11,338 nucleotides of DNA from a virus (IMGVR_UViG_3300020227_000052:1-11338); one strand, 5' to 3'; counted from the first letter of the stretch, positions 1-11,338 are shown. The notes: a model not told the origin generated them from the sequence alone. Numbers and translations: made by a program.

Positions 1-390
1 ACACACTAGAAAATAAATTACCCAGTTCCCCAATAATATAAATATAAAATTAAATAAAATAATAATAAAAGTTGTGGAAAATATAAAATAGAATGAAAAT
101 AATATAGAAAGAAAATATATAATAAAATTAATTAAAATAAATAAATGTAATATGAAAATGGAAATGTAAAATGAAAAGTAATTGGCAGATAAAATAGAAA
201 ATGAGAATAGTTATAAAAATATAAACAATAAACTGCCCTACACTAACTATACAATAAAATTAATAAAATGTAAATAAATATGCAGTAATTGTAGTGGAAT
301 TTATAGAGTAATTAGAGTGTTGACAATTGGAAAATTAAAGTGGAATGAAATTGGAATGAATGTAGGTAAAATCTTTTTTTAAGGGGTATA
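1..390. repeat. Left inverted terminal repeat (ITR-L), 390 bp, non-coding; presumed protein-primed replication origin
   Basis: 1-390 equals the reverse complement of 10949-11338 with no mismatch found in a block-by-block comparison. Identity stops after AAGGGGTATA (381-390): left continues ACTACATT, right-arm complement continues GAGAAGCA. No ORF longer than a few codons. Very AT-rich with internal short repeats. Confidence 0.97.
341..360. repeat. Tandem direct repeat TGGAATGAA-AT-TGGAATGAA inside the ITR (mirrored at 10979-10998)
   Basis: TGGAATGAA occurs at 341-349 and 352-360, an 11-bp period. Related NTGGAA cores occur at 74-79, 158-163, 294-299 and 327-332. Most of the few G residues in the ITR lie in these motifs. 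Confidence 0.6.
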
Positions 391-403
391 ACTACATTAT
401 ATT

Positions 404-431
404 TTGTGAATGAAAGAAAGTATGTTATAAT
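404..431 (+). promoter_or_regulatory. Early sigma-A-type promoter (TTGTGA - 16 nt - TGtTATAAT)
   Basis: -35 TTGTGA at 404-409, 16-nt spacer containing an extended -10 TG at 423-424, and a consensus -10 TATAAT at 426-431. It lies 14 bp inside the unique sequence after ITR-L and upstream of the first gene. Confidence 0.6.
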
Positions 432-472
432 GACATTACATAGAAATAGTTTATGTAACTAAAATGCAGTAA

Positions 473-481
473 TGCTATATT
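473..481 (+). promoter_or_regulatory. Second extended -10 element (TGcTATATT) immediately upstream of gene 1
   Basis: TGCTATATTA at 473-482 is identical to the core of the 3581 and 6956 promoters. There is no clear -35. The predicted transcription start (~488) falls at the SD of gene 1, so it may act as an operator rather than a promoter. Confidence 0.35.
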
Positions 482-501
482 AATTATGAGGAGTGAATAA
501 C

Positions 502-759
502 ATGTTAGAAACAATGAAGAAACCAGATAATGAAGTGATTAAGGGTATAGGTAAATTCTGTAAGAAATTTAGAGTGGACTATATGAACATGAGTATGACT
601 GAATTTGCAAGAGAACGAGAACTTAAAATGAGTAATGTAAATGCTTTTGAGCGTGGTCATGCAAACAGTATTATATATTTGCTACATTATTATGATGAGG
701 CAGATGATAGCTTGAAACAGTTTTTCATTAACAACGTATTTGAATTATATAAACAATAG
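502..759 (+). CDS. XRE/Cro-CI-type helix-turn-helix transcriptional regulator (85 aa)
   Basis: SD GAGGAG at 488-493 lies 8 nt before ATG 502. The ORF-track start at 493 is a GTG inside that SD, so 502 is preferred. The segment IGKFCKKFRVDYMNMSMTEFARERELKMSNVNAFERGHANS fits the XRE HTH pattern (helix, turn, helix, then E-x-G). It is the first gene of the early operon. TAG stop. Confidence 0.7.
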   Translation: MLETMKKPDNEVIKGIGKFCKKFRVDYMNMSMTEFARERELKMSNVNAFERGHANSIIYLLHYYDEADDSLKQFFINNVFELYKQ

Positions 760-769
760 GAGTGATTGA

Positions 770-1408
770 ATGGCAGGAAAGATAAAAGCAGTTGAGAAGG
801 GGATAAAGAAGGCAGCAGGAAAAGGGGAATTCTTAGCTGAACCCGAATTCAAGGTATTAAAGCAACAGCTTAGAAAAGAAGCAAGGAACGCAAACAAGAA
901 ACTAAAGGCAATGGAACGCAACGGACTGGAAGGAATGCCTGCATATCAAGAAATGAGTGACCTAAACAACAATGGACGAAAAAGGTACTCAACAGCAGGG
1001 GGAAACACCAAAAAGGACGTACAGGCTATGCGTAAGGAATTAGCCAAGATACAACGATTTAACAATGCTGAAACTGGAGGAGTTAAGAAGTCGAGAAACT
1101 ACCTAAAGAAAACAGCTGCAGCCTTTGGAATCAAATATAAGAACACTAAAGAACTAATAGCCAACTCACGTGTTTTCTGGCAGATAGTAAGCAAATTACA
1201 ACAGAAATACGATAATATGAAGGTCGAAGATTCTGAAGAAGTTGTTGAAAAGGTTAAAGAATATTTAGAGAACAACCCTGATGCTATTGATTCAGAAGAC
1301 CCTGAAGCCATAATGGATAACATAATGAAAAATGATACAAACTTAGATTCTAAAAACATTTCAAATGTAAGAGGTACTTTTTCACGTGGGGGAGAGCCGA
1401 GAAGATAA
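770..1408 (+). CDS. Putative terminal (priming) protein, 212 aa; the CDS is solid but the function is assigned mainly by position
   Basis: SD AGGAGTG at 758-764, ATG at 770, TAA stop. It sits directly upstream of the protein-primed polymerase, as the terminal-protein gene does in phi29-type phages. The N-terminal two-thirds is very basic (many K/R) and the C-terminal part is acidic (EDSEEVVEKVKEYLENNPDAIDSEDPEAIMD), like the DNA-binding plus priming-domain layout of known terminal proteins. I recognise no diagnostic motif. Confidence 0.5.
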   Translation: MAGKIKAVEKGIKKAAGKGEFLAEPEFKVLKQQLRKEARNANKKLKAMERNGLEGMPAYQEMSDLNNNGRKRYSTAGGNTKKDVQAMRKELAKIQRFNNAETGGVKKSRNYLKKTAAAFGIKYKNTKELIANSRVFWQIVSKLQQKYDNMKVEDSEEVVEKVKEYLENNPDAIDSEDPEAIMDNIMKNDTNLDSKNISNVRGTFSRGGEPRR

Positions 1409-1434
1409 AAATATGTAACAAAGGAGTGGAATAA

Positions 1435-3564
1435 ATGACTTATGACCTAACATCATTGAAAAGACAAAAAGCCTACAAAAAAGACGGTATAGAATACATT
1501 AATATTGAATGTGCTTTTGATATAGAAACAACAAACACCAAGACAGATACACAAGAGCCGATAGCTTTCATGTACGCTTGGTGTCTAGGATTGAGAAATG
1601 AAAATTTCATGTATTACGGTAGAACGTGGGAAGAATTTTTAGAACTTTGCCGAGACCTAAAAGAACACTTCCAACTAAACGAAGAAAGACGTTTAGTCTG
1701 TTACGTTCATAACCTAGCTTTCGAATTTCAGTTTATGCGTAAATATTTTAATTGGACACACATATTTGCACCTGAAAAACGACAGCCATTAGTAGCACTT
1801 AATGACTTCGGTATAGAGTTTAGGGACTCTTACCGATTATCAGGCAGTGATTTAAACACTGTAGCCAATAACTTAGCCTTTCATGATATTGAGAAGTTAA
1901 AAGGGGACTTGGATTATACCCTTACAAGACATCACAACACAGAACTAACAGCTAAAGAATGGGGCTACATTAAACATGATGTTTTAATATTGTTGTATTA
2001 CATTAATGAGCAATTTGCATACTACAATTATAACATAACTAGGGTACCTTTTACTAATACTGGACGTGTAAGAAAATACGTTAGGGATATGTGTTACAAG
2101 GTACAACCTGATGACTTAAATATATTCGGTAAACCTATTAGAAGCTATAACAAATACAACAGCTATAAACGAATTATGAACGTATTACAATTAACAGCTG
2201 AATCATATCAACAATGCAGAAATGCTTTCATGGGCGGATATGTACATGCTAGTGCTAGAAAGCTAGGGCAGACATTAGAGAATGTAACCTCAATTGATAT
2301 TACCTCTTCATATCCTGCCGTAATGGTTAGTGAAAAATTCCCTATGAGTAAACCGTTTAAAGTTGATGTGTCCGACCCTGATTTTAATTTTAGGGATTAC
2401 TTTAACAATACTAACTTAAATCTAGTATTTACAATCAAACTAATAAACCCAATGAACAAATTAGAATACGATTATGAAAGCTATATTTCAGAAAGCAACT
2501 GTGAATATATCTCTAATCCGATAACACACAATGGACGTGTATTCAGTGCTGATGAATTGATTCTAACTATCACTGATGTTGATTTTGATGTAATAGAAAA
2601 AACTTACGAATGGGACGAAATACAGTTTGCTAACATGTATTACTTTTACAATGACTACCTACCTAAACCAATCATAAAATCAATTATGAAGCTATATGAA
2701 GACAAAACACAGCTAAAAGGTATAAAAGGTAAGGAATTAGAATATTATCTAAATAAGAGCATGCTAAACGCAGTGTATGGCATGACAGTCACTGACATAG
2801 TAAAAGATGATGTAGTTTATGATGAAAACTTAGACGATTGGGAACTAGAAGAAGCTAACATAAATGAAAAAATAAACAGATATAATCACGATAAGAACCG
2901 ATTTCTATACTATCCATGGGGGCTTTTTGTATCGGCATACGCAAGAAGGAACCTATGGGACGGAATCGTGAACATTGGAAATGATTATGTTTATTCTGAT
3001 ACTGATTCTATTAAGTTAGAGAATATAGAAAATCATTATGACTTTATCTATTACTACAATAATATGATAACTGAAAAAGTTCAGGCTATGTGTGAACACT
3101 ATAACTTAGACTATCAAAGACTAGCACCCGAAAATATCAATGGGGAAATTAAACCTATAGGCATTTGGGAAGTTGACGGAACTTATTCTAAATTTAAAAC
3201 ACTAGGGGCTAAACGTTATCTAGTAGAACATAAAGACAGTAAAGAATTAGAAATAACACTTTCAGGTTTAAACAAAAAAGACGGTGTGAAATATCTAAAA
3301 CAAGAGTTTGGAACTAACGAAAATGTATTTGAGAACTTTGATAATTATTTATATGTTCCTGATGAGTATTCAGGTAAGCTAGTTCATTACTATATCGAAA
3401 AAGAACAGTTAGCTAACATTACAGATTATCAAGGCAACACAGTAGCAGTAAAAGCACCCTCAGGGCTTCATTTAGAGCCTACACATTTTACTTTAAGTTT
3501 GCCATTAATAGCTAAAGAAATAATAGATAATGCAGAAAAAGGCTATATTATAACGTCATTATAA
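1435..3564 (+). CDS. Protein-primed family-B DNA polymerase (709 aa)
   Basis: SD AAGGAGTGG, ATG at 1435, TAA stop. All motifs are visible: Exo I FDIETT (D29, E31); Exo II HNLAFEF (N93, F96, E97); Exo III YIKHD (Y178, D182); motif A DITSSYP (D288); motif B KSMLNAVYG (K441); motif C YSDTDS (aa 520-525, nt 2992-3009); KxY LGAKRY (K593, Y595). The long A-to-B and B-to-C spacers match the TPR1/TPR2 insertions of protein-primed enzymes. Confidence 0.97.
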   Translation: MTYDLTSLKRQKAYKKDGIEYINIECAFDIETTNTKTDTQEPIAFMYAWCLGLRNENFMYYGRTWEEFLELCRDLKEHFQLNEERRLVCYVHNLAFEFQFMRKYFNWTHIFAPEKRQPLVALNDFGIEFRDSYRLSGSDLNTVANNLAFHDIEKLKGDLDYTLTRHHNTELTAKEWGYIKHDVLILLYYINEQFAYYNYNITRVPFTNTGRVRKYVRDMCYKVQPDDLNIFGKPIRSYNKYNSYKRIMNVLQLTAESYQQCRNAFMGGYVHASARKLGQTLENVTSIDITSSYPAVMVSEKFPMSKPFKVDVSDPDFNFRDYFNNTNLNLVFTIKLINPMNKLEYDYESYISESNCEYISNPITHNGRVFSADELILTITDVDFDVIEKTYEWDEIQFANMYYFYNDYLPKPIIKSIMKLYEDKTQLKGIKGKELEYYLNKSMLNAVYGMTVTDIVKDDVVYDENLDDWELEEANINEKINRYNHDKNRFLYYPWGLFVSAYARRNLWDGIVNIGNDYVYSDTDSIKLENIENHYDFIYYYNNMITEKVQAMCEHYNLDYQRLAPENINGEIKPIGIWEVDGTYSKFKTLGAKRYLVEHKDSKELEITLSGLNKKDGVKYLKQEFGTNENVFENFDNYLYVPDEYSGKLVHYYIEKEQLANITDYQGNTVAVKAPSGLHLEPTHFTLSLPLIAKEIIDNAEKGYIITSL

Positions 3565-3576
3565 AGCCACTGATTT

Positions 3577-3594
3577 GTTTTGCTATATTATATA
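3577..3594 (+). promoter_or_regulatory. Extended -10 promoter of the packaging/portal module (GTTTTGCTATATTATATA)
   Basis: TG at 3581-3582 and -10 TATATT at 3584-3589, with no recognisable -35. The 18-mer is identical to 6952-6969. It lies in the 58-bp gap between the polymerase stop and the ATPase start. Confidence 0.55.
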
Positions 3595-3622
3595 GTGAAG
3601 AAAAATAAAGGTGGTACGAATC

Positions 3623-4717
3623 ATGGCAAAGAATCAAAGATATTATAGCTTAGATAATATTCTATCTGTTAAAGCCCAGTACAATATGGTTATAGGGGAA
3701 CGTTCCAATGGTAAAACGTACGGTACTTTAAAACATGCTATAAATGAGTATTTCAACGGTAACGGTGGACAACTTGCGATAGTTAGACGTTGGCAAGAAG
3801 ATATAAGAGGTAAACGTGCTAGTGATATGTTTTCATCACTTAATCAAGATAACGTTATCTATGAACTATCAAATGGGGCATATGAAGGTATTAAATACTA
3901 TGCAGGTAAATTTTATTTCTGTAACTATGATGAAGACGGAAAGGCTTTATATAATGAATCCGACATATTTGCCCATGCTTTTGCTTTATCAGATACAGAA
4001 CATAATAAATCAATTTCATTCCCTAATATTAAAACGATTCTATTTGATGAGTTTATGACTAGGGGAAGTTATTTACAAGATGAATTTATTCTATTTATGA
4101 ATACAGTATCGACAATCGTTAGACAAAGAAAAGACGTAACTATATTTATGTTAGGTAACACAGTAAACAAATATAGCCCTTACTTTAAAGAAATGGGGCT
4201 TTCACGTGTTCAAGATATGAAACAAGGAACAATTGAAGTTTACACGTACGGTAATAGTGATTTGAAGGTTGCAGTTGAATATACAGCACCTACAAAGAGT
4301 AAGAAGGATAGTAACGTGTACTTTGCTTTTGATAACCCTAAATTGAATATGATTACGAGTGGTAGTTGGGAGTTAGATTTATACCCTCATTTACCAGTTA
4401 AATATAACTACTCAAACATTGAATTTATTTATTTCATTAAGTTTGACGATAATATTTATCAAGCAGAAATTATTCATAAAGACGGGGAAATGTTTACGTT
4501 CATACACGATAAAACAACACCGATTAAGAATGAAGATGATTTAGTTTATTCGTTGGAATACAGTCACAAAATGACACACCAACGAAACATATTAAGACCA
4601 AAAAACAAACTAGAGAGTAATATAAAATACTTCTTTGATATAGACAAGGTATTTTATCAAGATAATTCCGTAGGGGATAGCATAAACAACTACTTAAAAG
4701 TATGTAGTGGAATGTAA
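3623..4717 (+). CDS. DNA encapsidation (packaging) ATPase, phi29 gp16-like (364 aa)
   Basis: SD AAGGTGG at 3608-3614 lies 8 nt before ATG 3623. The ORF-track GTG at 3611 lies inside the SD. Walker A is VIGERSNGKTY and Walker B is KTILFDEFM. The flanking LAIVRRW and LGNTVNKYSPYF match, as I recall them, the gp16 layout (VIGARGIGKS, IYVRRY, IVFDEF, LSNAVSVVNPYF). TAA stop. Confidence 0.92.
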   Translation: MAKNQRYYSLDNILSVKAQYNMVIGERSNGKTYGTLKHAINEYFNGNGGQLAIVRRWQEDIRGKRASDMFSSLNQDNVIYELSNGAYEGIKYYAGKFYFCNYDEDGKALYNESDIFAHAFALSDTEHNKSISFPNIKTILFDEFMTRGSYLQDEFILFMNTVSTIVRQRKDVTIFMLGNTVNKYSPYFKEMGLSRVQDMKQGTIEVYTYGNSDLKVAVEYTAPTKSKKDSNVYFAFDNPKLNMITSGSWELDLYPHLPVKYNYSNIEFIYFIKFDDNIYQAEIIHKDGEMFTFIHDKTTPIKNEDDLVYSLEYSHKMTHQRNILRPKNKLESNIKYFFDIDKVFYQDNSVGDSINNYLKVCSGM

Positions 4718-4734
4718 AGGGGAGTAACAACAGA

Positions 4735-5925
4735 ATGACAAACCAATACGATTGGGGAATTTATAACGGTATTCATGGCATACCTTTCGACAGAACAGAA
4801 AAAGACCGAAACACACGTAACCAAGTCATGTATATGTTAGACCGTAGCTTATTGATGTTTAAATATCATAATCTACCCGAGACACTACCACCAATTGAAC
4901 TTGAAAGACTATTACAAACAAATGGTTTTGCAGGTGTAACCGAAGTGAATGGGGAACTTTACGCTTTCTATGGTGGACTAGGTGGAGAACAGGACGTTTA
5001 CGGAAGACCAACAACAATGGTTATTTCTAATCCAGCTTTAAACTATAACGAAACACTAACAATTGATAGAGACGTAGTTTTAATGCGTAACGATAGTATG
5101 ATGTTAGGTTTAATACCTACATTTGCTAAATACAGTTCAATCATGAATGAGAATGAATTGTCTATGACTTTAGCAAGCATTTCACAACGTGTGAATAATT
5201 TAATTAGTGTTGCTGATGACAACACAGCAGATTCTGCTAAAAAGTATTTGAAACAATTAGAAGAAGGTAAACTAGGTTACATTTTTGAATCTAAGTTATT
5301 TGATTCACTACAAACTAATCCTATGAACAGTTCAGGAGGTTCTAGCATTACTGAACTGATTGAGTTACAGCAATATCTAAAAGCTAGTATGTACAATGAG
5401 ATAGGTTTAAATGCTAACTACAACATGAAACGTGAAAGACTTAACTCTGCTGAAGTCGAAATGAATTCAGACAACCTATATCCGTTAGTAGATAACATGC
5501 TAGAACATAGAAGAATGGCATTAGAACAGATTAATGAAAAATATGGAACTGATATATCTGTAGAGTTTAACTCTAGTTGGGACTATAGAATTAATCAAGG
5601 GGAAAGCATAGACAGTGAGTATTTGGAACAAGCAGATGAACAGAGCCAAGAAGACTTGGGATTCTCTGAACTGGAAGCTAATTCAGATACATTTGAAGAT
5701 GATGAATCAATCGGACAGGAAGAAGAAGCAGAACCAACTGAAACAGTTGAAGAAGCAAGTCAAGAAACTCAAACAGAGCCATTAGATGAACCATTGATAG
5801 AACATAAAGAAGAGTTAGTAGAAGATACTGAACAAAGTGATGAAGAGTTACATTCTAGTTTAGACTTTGAAGAAATTATAGAAGGCTTAGCAAATTTAAA
5901 TAAAGAAAAAGTAAAGGAGCAATAA
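4735..5925 (+). CDS. Portal / upper collar connector, phi29 gp10-like, with an acidic C-terminal extension of about 110 aa (396 aa)
   Basis: SD AAGGGGAG, ATG at 4735, TAA stop. The segments FKYHNLPETLPPIELERLLQTNGFAGV, GGEQDVYGRPT, NEIGLNANYNMKRERLNSAEVEMNSD and EQINEKYGTDISVEF parallel conserved blocks of the phi29 connector as I recall it (WENLPPTINPSFLEK, GQRDVY, LGIKNANLEKKERMVTDEV, KINELYGLNVKVKF). From about aa 288 the sequence is acidic low complexity. Confidence 0.88.
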   Translation: MTNQYDWGIYNGIHGIPFDRTEKDRNTRNQVMYMLDRSLLMFKYHNLPETLPPIELERLLQTNGFAGVTEVNGELYAFYGGLGGEQDVYGRPTTMVISNPALNYNETLTIDRDVVLMRNDSMMLGLIPTFAKYSSIMNENELSMTLASISQRVNNLISVADDNTADSAKKYLKQLEEGKLGYIFESKLFDSLQTNPMNSSGGSSITELIELQQYLKASMYNEIGLNANYNMKRERLNSAEVEMNSDNLYPLVDNMLEHRRMALEQINEKYGTDISVEFNSSWDYRINQGESIDSEYLEQADEQSQEDLGFSELEANSDTFEDDESIGQEEEAEPTETVEEASQETQTEPLDEPLIEHKEELVEDTEQSDEELHSSLDFEEIIEGLANLNKEKVKEQ

Positions 5926-5926
5926 C

Positions 5927-6268
5927 ATGAATATCAGAGATTTATCAGAACAAGATTTAGAAGGTAAAGAAATGTTGAAGTTTGCAAACCAACAAGGTTT
6001 ATTTACTTTGAAACAAATTGAAGATGGTGTAGTAGATACACAAATCGAAGAGCAAGAAGTAGAGGTATCACCAGCAGAGGCAGAGCCTACAGCAGAACCA
6101 GTATCAGAAACACCACAAGAAGATGAACACACTGTAGACCAAACAGCTGAAGAAACTTCACAAGATAATGCTGAAGTACAAGAGGCTGAAACTGAAGACG
6201 GAGAATCAGCAGACACACAAGACAACTATAATGAAACACCTTTAGAAGAAGACGAATTAGACATTTAA
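5927..6268 (+). CDS. Small highly acidic protein (113 aa); putative scaffolding protein
   Basis: SD AAAGGAG lies inside the end of the portal gene, and ATG 5927 is 1 nt after the portal stop, which suggests coupling. 32 of 83 residues in aa 31-113 are D/E, with no K/R. Its size, charge and position in the head module resemble phi29 gp7-type scaffolds. The function is inferred only. Confidence 0.45.
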   Translation: MNIRDLSEQDLEGKEMLKFANQQGLFTLKQIEDGVVDTQIEEQEVEVSPAEAEPTAEPVSETPQEDEHTVDQTAEETSQDNAEVQEAETEDGESADTQDNYNETPLEEDELDI

Positions 6269-6289
6269 TAGTATAGGGGGATTAAATTT

Positions 6290-6922
6290 ATGATACACAA
6301 TCATAAGCAATTAAAAGTATTCGACTTATACAAAAAAGGTAAGGGATTATTTGAGTATATGAACGATATTCAAGCTTTACCTTTTGAAGAGGTATTGGAT
6401 ATTAAAACTATTGATTTATCCTTCATTACCTTTTACGGTAATAGGGATATTTCTTCCCCTATTGAACACATAGTAGGTGAGGAAGTTACAGATGAAAATA
6501 TGAAACAAATAGCCTCTATGCTATACGGATTGTACTATCAGAAATGGACTAATTTGTATGAGATATATAAAGAAGAGGTAGACCTTGATAGTTATGTTTT
6601 AATCACTGATGAAAATATTCAAGATGATGGAACAGAAGAATCTACAGTTACTTCAAGTAATGATGATACATCTACACACAGTGTTACAGGTTACAATTCT
6701 GATGAGTTTGTAGATTCTGAACAAGACACTAATAAAGGTACAGGCAACACACAGAATGAAGGTAAAAATAACAACCTTAGAGATAGACACCAAGAACAAA
6801 GGGGTAACTTAGGCAACAGACTAGATGACAGACAAAAAGCAATTGACGGATTAAACCAAGACGTTATTCAAGAGGTTGTTTTTAAAGATACTGTACAGCT
6901 AGTAGGTAGCTTAATGTTCTAA
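6290..6922 (+). CDS. Hypothetical protein in the structural module (210 aa); possibly a lower-collar/head-tail adaptor or head decoration protein
   Basis: SD AGGGGGA at 6275-6281 lies 8 nt before ATG 6290. TAA stop. The N-terminal ~100 aa looks globular and the C-terminal half is polar low complexity (S/T/D/N/Q-rich) ending in RGNLGNRLDDRQKAIDGLNQ. I cannot assign a family. Its place between the portal/scaffold and capsid genes is the only functional hint. Confidence 0.55.
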   Translation: MIHNHKQLKVFDLYKKGKGLFEYMNDIQALPFEEVLDIKTIDLSFITFYGNRDISSPIEHIVGEEVTDENMKQIASMLYGLYYQKWTNLYEIYKEEVDLDSYVLITDENIQDDGTEESTVTSSNDDTSTHSVTGYNSDEFVDSEQDTNKGTGNTQNEGKNNNLRDRHQEQRGNLGNRLDDRQKAIDGLNQDVIQEVVFKDTVQLVGSLMF

Positions 6923-6951
6923 ATATAATAACAATATAAAATTATTAAAAA

Positions 6952-6969
6952 GTTTTGCTATATTATATA
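6952..6969 (+). promoter_or_regulatory. Extended -10 promoter of the capsid gene (GTTTTGCTATATTATATA)
   Basis: TG at 6956-6957 and -10 TATATT at 6959-6964, with an A/T-rich upstream region and no -35. The 18-mer is identical to 3577-3594. It lies in the 87-bp gap before the capsid gene. Confidence 0.6.
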
Positions 6970-7009
6970 TGATTAGAAAATAAATTAAAAAATCGGGAGT
7001 GCTAAAAAA

Positions 7010-8209
7010 ATGAGAGTACAACAAATATATGAACTGATGAATAAATCAGTAGGGGAAGTATTAGGTCGAGAAGACGTTTTTAAAGAAGATTTATCAAACG
7101 TAGTAGACGTTGGTAAAGAGATTGTAGACACAGACAACGTAGATAATTACGTAAAGAAATTAGTAAACCACATTGGTAAGGTTATTTTTAACGACCGAGT
7201 TTATAAAGGTAATATTCCAAGCGTAGTTATGGACTCATGGGAATTCGGTTCTATCTTAGAAAAAATTAGTGCAGATATTCCTGAAGCATATGAAAACGAA
7301 TCTTGGCAGTTAGAAGACGGTAAACAATACAAACAAGATATTTTCTATCAACCGAAAGTATCAGCTAAATTCTTCAACAGTAAGGTAACTTTTGAAATTC
7401 CTATTTCATTTACTGAATTACAAGTTAAAGAATCATTCTCTAACCGTGAACAGTTAAACGGATTCTTATCTATGCTATTTAACCAAGTTGAAAATGCTAT
7501 GACTATTAAATTAGATAACCTAGTTATGAAAACTATCAACACTATGACAGCTGACACGTTAGCTGATGAATTAGGAAATGATTTATCTAAATCAGGTGTA
7601 CGTGCTATTAACCTATTAGCTTTATACAATGAGCAAAAAGGAACTAGCCTAACAGCTAAAGAGTCTTATAAAGACCCAGACTTTATTCGATTTGCTTCAT
7701 ACATGATTAGCTTACAAAAAGACCGTATGACTAAGATTTCAACACTATTCAACGGTGGTGGCAAAGAACGATTCACACCAAGTGAAAACTTATCAATCGT
7801 ATTGCTATCAGATTTTGCTAGTTCATCAAATGTATACCTAAATTCAGACGTATTCCATAATGAACTAACTTCATTACCAAACCATGAAACAGTTCCTTAT
7901 TGGCAAGGTTCAGGCAAAAATTATGATTTCGAAGACGTTTCAAAAATTAGTGTTAAAACAGCAAACAACGAAAACGTTACTACATCAGGTATCTTAGGTG
8001 TAATGTTCGACACTCAAGCAGTGGGCGTGGCAAACCTAGATAAACGTGTAACAACTAACTATAACGCAGCTGCTGAATTCTATACAAACTACTACAAAGC
8101 AGATGTAGGCTATTTCGTAGATAATAACGAAAACTATGTTGTTTTCTTTGTAGCAGACGGACAAGAACAAACAGAAACTCAAGCTAAAACTAAAACAGCT
8201 TCTAAATAG
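7010..8209 (+). CDS. Major capsid protein, phi29 gp8-like HK97-fold (399 aa)
   Basis: SD GGGAGTG at 6995-7001 lies 8 nt before ATG 7010. TAG stop. It has its own promoter and a strong terminator, as expected for the most abundant virion protein. The N-terminal VGKEIVDTDNVDNYVKKLVNHIGKVIFNDRVY and C-terminal AAEFYTNYYKADVGYF blocks resemble the gp8 pattern as I recall it. There is no Ig-like C-terminal domain. Confidence 0.85.
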   Translation: MRVQQIYELMNKSVGEVLGREDVFKEDLSNVVDVGKEIVDTDNVDNYVKKLVNHIGKVIFNDRVYKGNIPSVVMDSWEFGSILEKISADIPEAYENESWQLEDGKQYKQDIFYQPKVSAKFFNSKVTFEIPISFTELQVKESFSNREQLNGFLSMLFNQVENAMTIKLDNLVMKTINTMTADTLADELGNDLSKSGVRAINLLALYNEQKGTSLTAKESYKDPDFIRFASYMISLQKDRMTKISTLFNGGGKERFTPSENLSIVLLSDFASSSNVYLNSDVFHNELTSLPNHETVPYWQGSGKNYDFEDVSKISVKTANNENVTTSGILGVMFDTQAVGVANLDKRVTTNYNAAAEFYTNYYKADVGYFVDNNENYVVFFVADGQEQTETQAKTKTASK

Positions 8210-8218
8210 ATAAAGCCG

Positions 8219-8254
8219 AAAGGGTAGGGGACTTAAAGCCCTTACCCTTTTTTT
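8219..8254 (+). terminator. Rho-independent terminator after the capsid gene
   Basis: The stem AAAGGGTA-GGG (8219-8229) pairs with CCC-T-TACCCTTT (8239-8250), giving 12 bp with one bulged T and a 9-nt loop. It is followed by a T-run through 8254 (7 consecutive T from 8248). Confidence 0.85.
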
Positions 8255-8255
8255 A

Positions 8256-8705
8256 ATGCAAGGGGGAACACCATTGGAAATAAGATTATATTATACAAGA
8301 AATGCAAATAACACAATTAACAAAGTATTAGAAAATGAAAGGGTATTTCAAATCAATTTTAAAGATATTGCAGATGAAATAAACCCAACCGTTAAAATCA
8401 AACACAATGAGAAACTAAAAGTAAATTATGCTTATATACCAGACTTTGAAAGATATTATTTTATAACTGATATTGAAGTATATCCAACAGCTATCAATAC
8501 ATTAAGTTTAGAAGTAGACGTATTAGAATCATTCAAAGAAGATATTTTAGAATCTAATGCTACCGTTTCACGTTCTAAATATTCAAATGAATATTTTGAT
8601 GGTGGAGATTACAGAGCTGAAGAACGTAAAGAGCATATCATTTATGAGAGTGATACAGAGGTAGAGTTTGAAAATAACACAATATTGGTAACGATAGGAG
8701 GATAA
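8256..8705 (+). CDS. Tail knob protein, N-terminal-domain fragment (phi29 gp9 N-terminus-like), 149 aa
   Basis: KVNYAYIPDFERYYFITDIEVYPTAINTLSLEVDVLESF parallels the gp9 N-terminal block as I recall it (SYIMFQN..NKWFYAFVTELEF...HFEIDVLQTW). ATG 8256 abuts the terminator T-run and has no SD. The in-frame TTG at 8274 has SD AGGGGGA (8261-8267) 6 nt upstream and may be the real start. TAA stop at 8703-8705. Confidence 0.65.
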   Translation: MQGGTPLEIRLYYTRNANNTINKVLENERVFQINFKDIADEINPTVKIKHNEKLKVNYAYIPDFERYYFITDIEVYPTAINTLSLEVDVLESFKEDILESNATVSRSKYSNEYFDGGDYRAEERKEHIIYESDTEVEFENNTILVTIGG

Positions 8706-8708
8706 CAG

Positions 8709-10703
8709 ATGGGAATATATTGGGCTTTAAAGTTTATTAACGAAGATGACACAGCTACCTTTACGAAAACGACCCATTATATAGAAGAAGGAACAATAGT
8801 TACCGTAACTGCTAATGATGGTTATGTGTTAGATACAATTAAATTAGAAACACCATTCTATACAGAAACAGTACCAAGTTCAGTTGTACAAGGTAAGCAA
8901 GAAGTTGAATTCAATCCAAGAAAATATATCAGAGATACAGCTACAACTAAAAACCTCACAATGACCGTGACTACTTCAGAAGTAGAAGTAGGGCAAGTAG
9001 TAACCTATACGTATGATTTAGATGATGGATTATATTCAAAATTTGATAAAGATGTAGTAGAGAAAACAGATGTTATTGAAATAGGTGCTAAGGATTATTA
9101 CAGGTTTAAAGGTAATATAGAGGTTACATTGAACGATAAAACAAGTAACTACAACCTTGAAGATAACGAACTGTATTTTAGAGATGAAGGTAAAACCTTT
9201 GCTTTACGAATGGAAACTAAGTGGCGTGATGACCTAGAAAGTGTTCATATTAAAGCACGTTCAGAATCATTCGTAGAATATGCTATTCAGTTATCTAATG
9301 CAGTAACTAATTATTATCTGCCAGAGGTACAAGGTAATGAAGAGATTATAGTATCTGCAAAAGAGAACTATGATTTCAGAAATGGTGTGACAGTTGTTTA
9401 TACACGTAACGGTATTAACGAACGAATCAATTACACACCTAAAAACAACCCCGAATATTTCAGTGAAGACAGCATAGACTTTTATTTAAATATAGCTGAT
9501 GTATGGACTGATGACCTACAAAAAATTGAGGTTATAGCTAATGCTGAAGAGATACCACCACCAAAAGAAGCCTCTATAAGACTTGGACTAGAAAATGCTA
9601 CATCTAACATCACAGGTAAGCATATTAAAGAGAATGAAGATTTAGTGCTTACAGCTGATGAAGGCTTTGAGTTTGGTGATTTAATCAAGATAACCATAAC
9701 AAGACAATTAAACGTAGGTACGACACAAACATATCTCCCTAACTCTGCCAGTGATTCCAAGTATTTCAATGATGATAATACAGTATTCACGCTGAATATG
9801 AGTGAGATTTGGGATTATGATACGTATATCATTTTAGTTGAGGCAAGTGCCAAAGAATCATACAAAGGTGATGACGATGAAGACATCACAGACAGTTCTA
9901 CGGACTTTGCTAACATCTATTACGCTGATAGTGGTATCTTATCAAATATAGCCTCTGAACGTTTCTCTAAGGCACAGACAGATGGTTTAGAAGGACAGGG
10001 AGATTTACCGATAGATATGGGAAGTTATATATATCAAGTCTATAAATTCCCTCTGAAGTTCACAGATGATTTAATCAGTGAATCAGAAAGTAAAATAAGA
10101 ATGGGATTCTATCCATTAGAGAGTACAAGTCGTTACATGTTGAGAAGTCGAGTTAAATTCGATTTAGGTACGATTACAGTACCCGAAACATACCACAACA
10201 TTTACGACTATAGAGACACACAGTGCCTATTGCATGTACCGTATGCAGAGCCTATAGAGATTGAACCAACGTACGTTATAGGGCAAATGATAGACCTAGC
10301 CTATTTCTTAGACCTTTACAACGGTAAAGTAACGTTAGAAGTGTATTCCGATAAAATAGAAGGTGGATTAGTTCAACGTGAAGAAGTACCCGTTGTATTC
10401 GATATACCGTTCATGCAACCAGAGTACAATAGCGTAGTGAATAAGGTCGGGGGCTATATCAATAACAAGGTTAAAACACCTTACATTGAAGTAGTTAGAA
10501 ACATTCCATATGACCCTAGCACTATATTTGGTAAAGAAGGCAAAGAGTATGACAAGCTAAAAGAGTTTGAAGGTTATGTAGAAGTAGCAGACCTAGACTT
10601 ATCTACCAATGCAAAACGTGAAGAACAAGAACAAATAGAATCATTATTAAGTCAAGGCGTAATCATTAATAAACCACAAGAAAAAACTATAATTACTGAA
10701 TAA
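8709..10703 (+). CDS. Tail knob / receptor-binding tail protein: four tandem ~95-aa repeat domains plus a gp9-like C-terminal region (664 aa)
   Basis: SD AGGAGGA at 8696-8702 lies 6 nt before ATG 8709. TAA stop. It is in the same frame as 8256-8705, separated only by TAA-CAG. Residues ~5-383 form four repeats. The C-terminal end EGYVEVADLDLSTNAKREEQEQIESLLSQGVII resembles the gp9 C-terminal pattern as I recall it ([33 protein letters not shown]). Confidence 0.65.
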   Translation: MGIYWALKFINEDDTATFTKTTHYIEEGTIVTVTANDGYVLDTIKLETPFYTETVPSSVVQGKQEVEFNPRKYIRDTATTKNLTMTVTTSEVEVGQVVTYTYDLDDGLYSKFDKDVVEKTDVIEIGAKDYYRFKGNIEVTLNDKTSNYNLEDNELYFRDEGKTFALRMETKWRDDLESVHIKARSESFVEYAIQLSNAVTNYYLPEVQGNEEIIVSAKENYDFRNGVTVVYTRNGINERINYTPKNNPEYFSEDSIDFYLNIADVWTDDLQKIEVIANAEEIPPPKEASIRLGLENATSNITGKHIKENEDLVLTADEGFEFGDLIKITITRQLNVGTTQTYLPNSASDSKYFNDDNTVFTLNMSEIWDYDTYIILVEASAKESYKGDDDEDITDSSTDFANIYYADSGILSNIASERFSKAQTDGLEGQGDLPIDMGSYIYQVYKFPLKFTDDLISESESKIRMGFYPLESTSRYMLRSRVKFDLGTITVPETYHNIYDYRDTQCLLHVPYAEPIEIEPTYVIGQMIDLAYFLDLYNGKVTLEVYSDKIEGGLVQREEVPVVFDIPFMQPEYNSVVNKVGGYINNKVKTPYIEVVRNIPYDPSTIFGKEGKEYDKLKEFEGYVEVADLDLSTNAKREEQEQIESLLSQGVIINKPQEKTIITE

Positions 10704-10715
10704 CTTAATTTGATT

Positions 10716-10743
10716 TTGTAAAACTGTATAAATATGTTATATT
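10716..10743 (+). promoter_or_regulatory. Orphan sigma-A-type promoter downstream of the last gene (TTGTAA - 16 nt - TGtTATATT)
   Basis: -35 TTGTAA at 10716-10721, a 16-nt spacer with TG at 10735-10736, and -10 TATATT at 10738-10743. It shares TATATTATATA with the 3584 and 6959 promoters. No ORF follows. Confidence 0.55.
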
Positions 10744-10749
10744 ATATAT

Positions 10750-10835
10750 AGGTCAAGAAGTTATTCACTTCTTTTATGTTTTAAAATTTTATTTTTCATT
10801 TCCTAAGACTAGGTACCGCCACCTAGTCTTTTTTT
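10750..10835 (+). ncRNA. Candidate small non-coding RNA of about 85 nt (promoter-to-terminator unit without an ORF)
   Basis: The predicted start is near 10750. Hairpin 1 is AAGAAGT/ACTTCTT (10755-10761 pairs with 10767-10773, 5-nt loop). A U/A-rich linker contains the self-complementary TTTTAAAATTTT (10779-10790). Hairpin 2 is the terminator at 10805-10835. The longest ORF inside is 2 codons. Confidence 0.35.
10805..10835 (+). terminator. Rho-independent terminator at the end of the late region
   Basis: A perfect 10-bp stem AAGACTAGGT (10805-10814) pairs with ACCTAGTCTT (10821-10830) around the 6-nt loop ACCGCC. The T-run at 10829-10835 has 7 T. Confidence 0.88.
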
Positions 10836-10948
10836 ATATCTTCCATCACAACCCCACTCATCCTTTTAATATAAGCAAAGAAAAGAATTTAGGTATTAAC
10901 TATCCTATTTACTATTTAATCCTACAGAATAACTCACAGTTGCTTCTC

Positions 10949-11338
10949 TATACCCCTTAAAAAAAGATTTTACCTACATTCATTCCAATTTCATTCCACT
11001 TTAATTTTCCAATTGTCAACACTCTAATTACTCTATAAATTCCACTACAATTACTGCATATTTATTTACATTTTATTAATTTTATTGTATAGTTAGTGTA
11101 GGGCAGTTTATTGTTTATATTTTTATAACTATTCTCATTTTCTATTTTATCTGCCAATTACTTTTCATTTTACATTTCCATTTTCATATTACATTTATTT
11201 ATTTTAATTAATTTTATTATATATTTTCTTTCTATATTATTTTCATTCTATTTTATATTTTCCACAACTTTTATTATTATTTTATTTAATTTTATATTTA
11301 TATTATTGGGGAACTGGGTAATTTATTTTCTAGTGTGT
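10949..11338. repeat. Right inverted terminal repeat (ITR-R), 390 bp
   Basis: Exact reverse complement of 1-390, ending ...CTAGTGTGT-3'. Confidence 0.97.

Follow-up and report, generated by a model that had tools for sequence, protein, structure and literature searches.

A very probably complete Astrithrvirus-like, phi29-type phage genome of 11.3 kb without recognizable lysis genes

The Astrithrvirus-like phages are discussed as the smallest tailed phages (PMC11476376; bioRxiv 10.1101/2025.06.18.659913), and Astrid/astrithr, with a genome of 11.6 kb, is cited as the smallest tailed phage isolated (10.1101/2025.06.18.659913). This group, treated as cluster 23 in a review of phi29-like phages, is described as phi29-related phages of Gram-negative hosts with genomes of 11 to 14 kb, a lower collar that is shortened, and a tail knob split over two genes, of which the distal one bears immunoglobulin-like (Ig-like) domains; the gene of ~185 amino acids (aa) in Astrithrvirus-like phages has been assigned as the shortened lower collar, a p5-like single-stranded DNA-binding protein (SSB) is listed for the group with its gene not named, and DU_PP_III and Phanie, at 30 to 40% intergenomic similarity, already stand outside the genus Astrithrvirus (PMC11476376). 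The Astrithrvirus-like isolates compared here are Salmonella phage astrithr/Astrid, phage DU_PP_III of Pectobacterium, phage Phanie of Acinetobacter, Enterobacter phage Entb_47, Shigella phage vB_SHGBLB0004, and Vibrio phage K58 g2. Phages this close to the smallest size that tailed viruses reach show how few genes suffice to build a head-tail virion and to propagate it. Here we describe IMGVR_UViG_3300020227_000052:1-11338, a stretch of viral DNA of 11,338 nucleotides (nt) that was analyzed as a whole (the window; coordinates are counted from its first base) and that is very probably a complete Astrithrvirus-like, phi29-type phage genome without recognizable lysis genes.

Judged by its sequence, the window very probably holds the whole, or essentially the whole, of a presumably linear double-stranded DNA genome of an uncultivated phi29-like podophage. 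The earlier note on this DNA had proposed a complete linear protein-primed podophage genome, in which long inverted terminal repeats (ITRs) enclose genes for replication, packaging, head, and tail that all lie on one strand, and this description is supported. A repeat search places the ITRs at 1-390 and 10949-11338, where they are 390 nt long, 100% complementary, and flush with both window ends, exactly as had been claimed; the next-best inverted pairs in the window are at most 52 nt long and ~71% complementary, which is background for A/T-rich sequence. GC content is 32% over the window and is 20% in the ITRs versus 30 to 37% in the interior. Ten plus-strand open reading frames (ORFs) make up 87.6% of the window, and an AGGAG-like ribosome-binding site precedes nine of the ten genes. 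All stops are TAA or TAG, tryptophan is always encoded by TGG (22 times) with no in-frame TGA, and no tRNAs were found in the window. The earlier count of ten same-strand genes stands except for the start of gene 9 (most likely TTG 8274, not ATG 8256), and the coordinates that had been named for the polymerase, ATPase, connector, and capsid genes are all right, with Pfam matches above the curated cut-offs. Beyond the ten protein genes, a conserved noncoding transcription unit occupies 10735-10838. The ITRs and genes are listed below, with E values given after family names and isoelectric points given as pI.

1-390, no strand: left ITR, ~20% GC (0.204), dense short A/T-rich repeats, starting 5'-ACACAC
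502-759, plus strand: gene 1, 85 aa, candidate for a small XRE-like helix-turn-helix (HTH) regulator, with homologues in gp01 of the astrithr, Phanie, and Shigella phages
770-1408, plus strand: gene 2, 212 aa, terminal (priming) protein candidate, directly upstream of the polymerase gene, pI 9.7, predicted all-helical
1435-3564, plus strand: gene 3, 709 aa, family B DNA polymerase of the protein-primed kind (PF03175 DNA_pol_B_2, 1.4e-12; PHROG 1907, 1.6e-75)
3623-4717, plus strand: gene 4, 364 aa, phi29 gp16-type DNA packaging ATPase (PF05894 Podovirus_Gp16, 4.9e-19; PHROG 2150, 2.9e-29)
4735-5925, plus strand: gene 5, 396 aa, head-tail connector of the phi29 gp10 type (PF05352 Phage_connector, 7.8e-18; PHROG 2038, 5.8e-38)
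5927-6268, plus strand: gene 6, 113 aa, acidic protein, pI 4.05, 37 acidic versus 4 basic residues
6290-6922, plus strand: gene 7, 210 aa, lower collar or tail tube candidate, by position and weak homology to the ~185-aa gene of DU_PP_III and the Shigella phage
7010-8209, plus strand: gene 8, 399 aa, phi29-type (HK97-fold) major capsid protein (PF25622 Phi29_MCP, 1.4e-52)
8274-8705, plus strand: gene 9, 143 aa from a TTG start (149 aa when counted from ATG 8256), N-terminal portion of a phi29 gp9-type tail knob that is split
8709-10703, plus strand: gene 10, 664 aa, distal protein of the tail knob, with four Ig-like beta-sandwich domains in tandem (aa 1-385) and then a C-terminal knob part
10949-11338, no strand: right ITR, perfect complement of 1-390

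The relationship to the Astrithrvirus-like isolates was seen at the level of proteins and gene order. Megablast with the whole window against 50,697 phage records gave no match; in tblastn searches against 50,697 phage records, these isolates, and no other phages, made up the top matches for both the polymerase and the capsid protein. With the ten window proteins as tblastn queries against the isolates, homology was found for eight of them. The polymerase is 43 to 49% identical to its counterparts at no less than 95% coverage, the ATPase 54 to 58%, the connector 36 to 45%, and the capsid protein 53 to 60% over at least 95% of its length. The isolates have genomes of 10.4 to 11.9 kb, a size like that of the window, and their annotated records share with it the order small gene, ~200-aa gene, polymerase, ATPase, connector, ~185-aa gene, capsid, ~145-aa gene, and large tail gene. 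The usual genus criterion of the International Committee on Taxonomy of Viruses is ~70% nucleotide similarity over the genome, and the window, with its failed megablast search and core proteins only 43 to 60% identical, falls outside the genus Astrithrvirus by that measure. What it has in common with the wider clade is the closest capsid and polymerase homology, the gene order, and the two-gene, Ig-bearing knob; for the shortened lower collar of cluster 23 it offers a 210-aa candidate with only weak homology. By these comparisons the window is assigned to the clade that holds the genus Astrithrvirus and not to the genus itself. Two of the earlier claims change as a result: the size, set well below the ~17 to 20 kb of phi29, Cp-1, and P68-type phages, is not unprecedented, as syntenic isolates of 10.4 to 11.9 kb are already in GenBank, and a distinct minimal lineage can be upheld only at about the genus or subfamily level, on the same core identities and lack of a megablast match, the kind of phage being known.

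Genes 1 to 3 form the putative early module. The gene 3 product scores 47.8 bits against PF03175 (cut-off, 25.8 bits), has the phi29 polymerase as its sole PDB match, and carries the motifs FDIET, YIKHDV, DITSSYP, YSDTDS, and KRY, so that exonuclease and polymerase motifs are present. Gene 2 is a candidate for the terminal protein, which would prime DNA synthesis at both ends, because of where it lies and how large it is, its basic pI, its predicted helices, and its homology to astrithr gp02. Gene 2 is 29 to 33% identical to the gene at the same position in astrithr, DU_PP_III, Phanie, and K58, and its counterpart in Astrithrvirus-like phages has been named as the counterpart of p3, the terminal protein (PMC11476376). 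Gene 1, with a GAGGAG ribosome-binding site before its ATG at 502, is a candidate HTH regulator on sequence comparison; its alignment with gp01 relatives retains C20, R24, F49-E50-x-G52, and Y63, and its profile gave sub-threshold matches only, to the XRE-type regulators ClgR (0.014) and SinR (0.28) and also to DdrOC. The labels of HTH regulator and terminal protein, both proposed earlier, stay candidate labels, the matches of the former being sub-threshold and the latter having no sequence or fold match in the PDB.

Contigs of uncultivated relatives, which carry L numbers here, bear on the ends of the genome. About 300 nt of the left ITR are homologous (77%) to the left end of L008, a contig of another sample, and the right end of L010, again from another sample, extends to the same inner boundary sequence as the right ITR of the window. 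The L008 lineage shows the inner boundary at the left end of one contig and, in opposite orientation, at the right end of a second contig that comes from a different run. The other contigs of the window lineage end at most ~30 nt from the inner ITR boundary; breaks of this kind are what short-read assemblers are expected to produce at a true repeat. Three independent assemblies of a sister lineage (L063, L064, and L066; positions 1-30) start at the same base with AAAGTACCC, which shares AAAGTA with the phi29 terminus (PMC11476376). The Shigella isolate starts with CACACC, close to the ACACAC of the window, and terminal reiterations are seen as AAA in the sister lineage, GGG in Phanie and DU_PP_III, and ACAC in the window. 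Sliding-back or jumping-back initiation, which needs such reiterations, is established for phi29 (AAA), PRD1 (CCCC), and adenovirus (GTAGTA), and the terminal 5'-ACACAC would let the primer-nucleotide complex slide or jump back in the same way. Compared with the window, the L063/L079 lineage has a terminal protein that is 35% identical and a polymerase that is 55% identical, but an ATPase and a capsid protein that are 86% and 81% identical; the diverged terminal protein and polymerase together with the different terminus (AAAGTA versus ACACAC) fit, and suggest, a replication module swapped together with its origin. A terminus and a terminal-protein/polymerase module that change as a pair provide a natural experiment for studying how specific protein-primed replication is for its origin.

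Genes 4, 5, and 8 serve packaging and the head, and gene 6 lies among them. Gene 4 has AAAGGTGG as the ribosome-binding site before its ATG at 3623. The connector ends in a hyperacidic C-terminal tail (5590-5925) of 111 aa, with 41 D/E versus 4 K/R, and the acidic gene 6 comes right after this acidic-tailed connector. The gene 6 protein gave no family match in Pfam, PHROGs, or NCBIfam and no PDB match in a profile search; it is 63 to 88% identical across the sister lineages, even in its apparently disordered part, and is without a counterpart in the isolates and absent from L014 too. A scaffold or a DNA mimic would be guesses at its role. The gene 8 capsid protein has at least 8,000 metagenomic homologues.

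Tail proteins are encoded by genes 7, 9, and 10. The profile of gene 7, the lower collar candidate, found no match in the PDB. Gene 9 most likely starts at TTG 8274 rather than at ATG 8256, as the TTG start is conserved in gene 9 of all relatives (143 aa). Its profile, built from 10 homologues, matches the phage C1 knob (4eo2, 4.6e-4), phi29 gp9 (5fb4, 0.005), and the Andhra tail protein (8egs, 0.018), and all three matches fall in the N-terminal regions of those proteins. The AlphaFold model of gene 10 has predicted local distance difference test (pLDDT) values mostly of ~80 to 94 at aa 100 to 380, lower values in the first 100 residues, and poor values after residue 385. A Foldseek search of the PDB with this model returned only multi-Ig, FN3, and sushi proteins, and the tail protein of Salmonella phage Astrid was its second-best viral match. 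The C-terminal 250 aa are 27 to 33% identical to gp10 of astrithr, the Shigella phage, DU_PP_III, and Phanie; the gene 10 profile had no match in the PDB, and no enzymatic domain was found in the gene 10 model with AlphaFold and Foldseek. The Ig-like domains of this distal knob protein would mediate attachment.

The isolates carry four accessory proteins that bear on what the window lacks. A protein of 62 to 70 aa with one membrane-like segment, encoded between the ATPase and the connector, is conserved among them, as are a CHAP-type endolysin (Pfam CHAP) after the tail gene (45 to 50% identity) and a reverse-strand protein of ~100 aa (48 to 62% identity) that is probably the phi29 p5-like protein; the fourth, of 50 to 76 aa and likewise conserved among the isolates, is also encoded on the reverse strand. 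When the accessory proteins of four isolates were compared with the window by tblastn, there was no match (best E value, 0.04), and the window proteins had no match to SSB, p6-like, appendage, or lysis genes in Pfam, PHROGs, or NCBIfam. None of the ten window proteins has a 19-residue stretch with a mean hydropathy above 1.2, compared to 2.1 to 2.3 in the membrane protein of the isolates. The gap between the ATPase and connector genes is 17 nt. No ORF lies in the 245 nt that separate the tail gene from the right ITR (10704-10948), a region that carries genes in relatives, and neither noncoding end has an ORF of more than 31 aa. The earlier statement that SSB-like, p6-like, appendage, and lysis genes are absent is thus borne out by the family, tblastn, hydropathy, and ORF searches of the window.

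Hidden lysis genes were considered as well. Two overlapping plus-strand ORFs, at 6384-6473 and 6609-6713, have a hydrophobic stretch; the first was rejected as a lysis gene on account of stops in the L063, L066, and L079 lineages, and hydrophobic ORFs on the antisense strand were discounted on general grounds, since purine-rich coding strands usually give rise to them. Relative to all isolates, the endolysin, the membrane protein, and the reverse-strand right arm with its SSB-like and p6-like genes appear to have been lost. Since relatives outside the lysin-less cluster carry endolysins of many kinds, the loss of lysis genes is most simply read as a derived trait of that cluster. With ten protein genes and no lysis cassette, the lineage goes beyond the described isolates of 11 to 12 kb.

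The same lysin-less layout recurs in L012, L015, L008 to L010, L063 to L070, L079, and L014, from many different sequencing runs. L012, L015, and L016 have 93 to 94% nucleotide identity to the window, by which L012 and L015 are placed in the same species-level lineage; L008 to L010 form a sister lineage that is ~77 to 85% identical and has the same layout; and L063 to L070 with L079 form another lysin-less sister lineage with an added eleventh gene (DUF7335). L014 represents a lysin-less lineage with nine genes and a 1,059-aa tail protein that has a G5 domain. Only four relatives are in IMG/VR. In a neighbor-joining tree of capsid plus polymerase, calculated without support values, the lysin-less lineages group together, adjoining the Astrithrvirus isolates, and the lysin-bearing relative L025 joins next to the lysin-less cluster. 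Relatives outside the cluster have GH25+CW_7, Amidase_3, Peptidase_M15, ELLD+CW_7, and CHAP lysins; five of them (L025, L050, L039, L022, and L074) have capsid proteins 58 to 61% identical to that of the window and very different endolysins. CW_7 wall-binding repeats are typical of lysins of Gram-positive phages, which suggests that the wider clade is not confined to Gram-negative hosts; it probably includes phages of Gram-positive hosts, despite its description in the literature as Gram-negative. The loci concerned are as follows.

L063, 406-717 (also in L064 to L070 and L079): eleventh gene, 103 aa, Pfam DUF7335 (1.1e-18), at the left end, without a counterpart in the window
L025, 10600-11421; L050, 10439-11050; L039, 5288-5848; L022, 10308-10733; L074, 10967-11389: endolysin loci of relatives (GH25+CW_7, ELLD+CW_7, Amidase_3, and Peptidase_M15_3)

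Some further records lie at the margin of this set. L014 (3360-3380 and 14869-15168) seems to be embedded in a 30.8-kb Joint Genome Institute (JGI) contig beside SufBD, cyclase, and transketolase genes. Integration into a host was rejected for this contig as a scaffold artifact: the junction contains N, which marks a scaffold gap, and the inverted repeat of 78 nt lies inside a right end that is longer. Scaffolds of the isolate genome assembly of Herbiconiux daphne CPCC 203386 (L034, L041, L042, L057, L058, and L061) hold at least six different capsid fragments 56 to 66% identical to the window, and L059, from another isolate assembly, of Limosilactobacillus portuensis, is a 445-bp fragment with a very low coverage of 0.8. 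These fragments look like contamination rather than a host signal.

Expression of the genome can be laid out from a small set of predicted signals.

404-431, plus strand: early promoter candidate, TTGTGA, 16-nt spacer, TATAAT, TG extension, the top-scoring site in the promoter scan
3581-3596, plus strand: middle/late promoter motif TGCTATATTATATA, upstream of the ATPase gene
6956-6971, plus strand: late promoter motif TGCTATATTATATA, upstream of the capsid gene
8218-8256, plus strand: G+C-rich hairpin followed by a U-run, terminator or attenuator, just 3' of the capsid gene
10735-10750, plus strand: promoter TGTTATATTATATATA, after the last gene, heading the small-RNA unit 10735-10838
10751-10838, plus strand: noncoding RNA of ~85 nt, between promoter 10735-10750 and the end of the intrinsic terminator 10805-10838

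The early promoter block at 404-431 is conserved across four lineages while the surrounding ITR diverges; lying just inside the left ITR, it would transcribe genes 1 to 3. The motif TGyTATATTATAwATA has three plus-strand copies (3581, 6956, and 10735) where ~0.4 would be expected by chance, and these promoters would drive the ATPase-collar block, the capsid-tail block, and the small RNA, respectively. A scan of viral contigs for the promoter motif gave no match, and a scan of metagenome contigs gave nine, of which one (L079) is a relative. The other eight (L075 to L078 and L080 to L083) are A/T-rich JGI contigs of 18 to 34 kb with 28 to 33% GC and one 21-nt promoter motif each; they encode no relative of the window proteins, and the motif there is taken as chance or unrelated. 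The hairpin at 8218-8256 has a folding energy of -20.5 kcal/mol (z, -3.5) and stem bases that are invariant in five lineages, although it escaped a simple terminator scan. It probably acts as an attenuator that governs how strongly capsid is expressed relative to tail, and it would keep capsid mRNA above tail mRNA.

The right-end unit has a strong intrinsic terminator (10805-10838) that begins 55 nt past the third promoter copy, and the fold of the ~85-nt transcript has a z score of -4.5. The arrangement of promoter, 85 to 105 nt, and terminator is found in four lineages, with the promoter near-identical and the terminator stems different yet still pairing. Isolates carry lysin and reverse-strand genes where the window has this small-RNA unit. 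Packaging in phi29 needs a prohead RNA (pRNA), which is known solely from Bacillus phi29 relatives and hence is not universal. The ~85-nt RNA is much shorter than the 120-nt minimal pRNA and is too short and too simple for that label; it might have a regulatory role, or it might be a minimal analogue that does the work of the phi29 pRNA. A search for an antisense target of the small RNA in the genome gave a best duplex of -20.5 kcal/mol against a shuffled-query mean of -18.1 (standard deviation, 1.8), which is not significant.

The host can be narrowed in part. All relatives come from gut, rumen, or fecal assemblies. In GTDB, relatives appear as contigs of 10 to 13 kb in metagenome-assembled genomes (MAGs) labeled as unrelated phyla; these labels are uninformative for host, and the contigs are read as misbinned free phage genomes. 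A plasmid collection gave no match to the window. The genetic code is standard, with TGA used as a stop in L063 and no in-frame TGA, which excludes Mycoplasma- and Spiroplasma-type hosts. Strong Shine-Dalgarno sites and TG-extended -10 promoters fit Bacillota-type expression and argue against Bacteroidota. Taken with the 32% GC and the Gram-positive-type lysin of a neighbor, they point weakly to a low-GC, Bacillota-type host.

Several observations weigh against reading the window as a complete protein-primed phage genome that has lost its lysis genes. The full ITR of the window lineage is carried by the window assembly alone. The family profile of gene 2 had no match in the PDB, including the solved phi29 terminal protein, and its AlphaFold model is poor (pLDDT, 56), with no match when that poor model was searched with Foldseek. 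Rfam at E values up to 1 gave no RNA family in the window, including pRNA. The tree in which the lysin-less lineages group together lacks support values. The absence of a lysis gene is itself a negative obtained with sequence methods, and an unseen small lysis protein without a membrane segment, for example, an inhibitor of peptidoglycan synthesis, could be among genes 1, 6, or 7. A more radical objection is that the window is a defective or misassembled derivative, in which the right arm of a larger genome was lost by repeat collapse or by deletion in one population. ITRs do mislead assemblers, truncation at the ITR affects most related contigs, and 10704-10948, gene-bearing in relatives, is noncoding here; however, the same ten genes and noncoding right end are found in contigs of many samples, including lineages 75 to 85% identical in nucleotide sequence, and the membrane-protein gene between ATPase and connector is also gone (17-nt gap), which collapse at an end cannot explain. 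A defect of a single contig was rejected, as the same layout recurs in contigs of many sequencing runs, and the derivative as a whole is highly improbable. Still less credible, to the point of being nearly negligible, is a kinship of the window with Mycoplasma phage P1 (Delislevirus P1), the phage that the earlier note had named as the closest architecture. P1 is an analogous minimal protein-primed podophage, with a genome of 11,660 bp, ITRs of 350 bp, and a protein-primed-type family B polymerase. Its record has genes on both strands, uses genetic code 4, and has no gene annotated as a lysin, whereas the window is coded on one strand in the standard code, with TGG for tryptophan and no in-frame TGA. 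Comparison by tblastn in code 4 found two short polymerase motif patches only (E values, 0.002 and 0.006) and no match in P1 for the ATPase, connector, capsid, or tail proteins of the window. The relationship is refuted at the level of sequence homology, and the comparison made earlier fails, as polymerase motifs alone are common to both.

For the Astrithrvirus-like genome without lysis genes that we favor, the question becomes how the phage leaves its host. With no recognizable lysis gene it cannot, by any recognizable gene, lyse a walled cell, and its release, perhaps also its entry, most likely relies on something external, either a co-infecting helper phage or a host without a peptidoglycan wall; an unrecognized lysis protein or host autolysins make up the remaining share. 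A satellite-type podophage, whose particle would by itself be not infectious or not releasable and would depend on a co-infecting helper for lysis and perhaps for a working tail, is one tentative answer. It has a precedent in Acinetobacter phage Aci01-2-Phanie, which is reported to need the myophage Aci01-1 and whose virions are reported to bind its contractile tail, as its relatives have been suggested to do (PMC11476376, on Pourcel et al. 2024). The Phanie-type split tail knob with lateral Ig-like domains is present in the window, which is even less autonomous than Phanie in having no lysin, membrane protein, or SSB-like gene, and satellite lifestyles are common among the smallest HK97-fold genomes (bioRxiv 10.1101/2025.06.18.659913). 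However, Salmonella phage Astrid of the same group is described as a nonsatellite (10.1101/2025.06.18.659913), such that architecture alone does not imply dependence; Phanie keeps its own lysin, which leaves the loss of a lysin outside the satellite syndrome as known; and the window retains its own replication, packaging, head, and tail genes. That the whole gut-widespread ten-gene cluster consists of obligate helper-phage hyperparasites, which dispensed with lysis and SSB functions and acquired the small RNA, is a bolder proposal that we consider doubtful. The other answer, also possible without being probable, is an autonomous phage of a wall-less or wall-poor low-GC host with the standard code, such as gut Acholeplasma-, Anaeroplasma-, or RF39-like Bacilli. 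An endolysin and a holin would be dispensable there, as in P1 (11.7 kb, 350-bp ITR), an analogous case whose record has no gene annotated as a lysin. Lysin and membrane protein are lost across the whole cluster of lineages; the GC content of 32%, the strong Shine-Dalgarno sites at nine of ten genes, and the TG-extended -10 promoters suit such a host, as do the Gram-positive-type GH25+CW_7 lysin of L025, the nearest lysin-bearing relative, and the gut, rumen, and fecal sources, where such bacteria live. Against it stand the MAG bin labels of the relatives, which scatter over many phyla and are unreliable, the standard code, which rules out the Mycoplasma- and Spiroplasma-type hosts, and the related L014, whose tail protein has a G5 domain, a domain typical of surface proteins of walled Gram-positive bacteria.

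The finding is mostly the correct recognition of a genome type that has already been described. What is new here is the smaller number of genes (ten, with no lysis cassette and no SSB-like gene), the longer ITRs, and the conserved small RNA. If helper dependence is true, the recently discovered Phanie-type satellite lifestyle would extend to an abundant gut-associated group, which would explain why such phages are rarely isolated, and, as hyperparasites, they would rank with the tailed viruses that make a complete virion from the fewest genes. If the host is wall-less, the lineage would be a second, unrelated case of convergent minimization beside Mycoplasma phage P1.

Compared with known systems, the window resembles phi29 and the Salasmaviridae in its protein-primed family B polymerase, gp16 ATPase, gp10 connector, phi29-type capsid protein, and gp9-type knob. 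The phi29 genome spans 19.3 kb with 27 genes and ITRs of 6 bp, and its early and late strands diverge. It encodes the SSB p5, p6, the appendages p12, the tail lysin p13, the holin p14, the endolysin p15, and a 174-nt pRNA (PMC11476376); no counterparts of p5, p6, p12, p13, p14, p15, or the pRNA are detectable in the window. The Astrithrvirus-like isolates stand closer. They have 13 to 15 genes compared to 10 in the window and, for the most part, 36 to 40% GC compared to 32%, a value that is also found in K58 g2. Their hosts are Gram-negative Proteobacteria, whereas the signals in the window and its nearest lysin-bearing relative point rather to Bacillota. Exact ITRs measure 171 bp in Phanie, 219 bp in DU_PP_III, and 60 bp in the Shigella phage; the astrithr record has one of 18 bp, the K58 g2 record has none, and the 390-bp ITR of the window is the longest of the set. 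The acidic 113-aa protein and the small-RNA unit at the right end are present in the window and not in the isolates.

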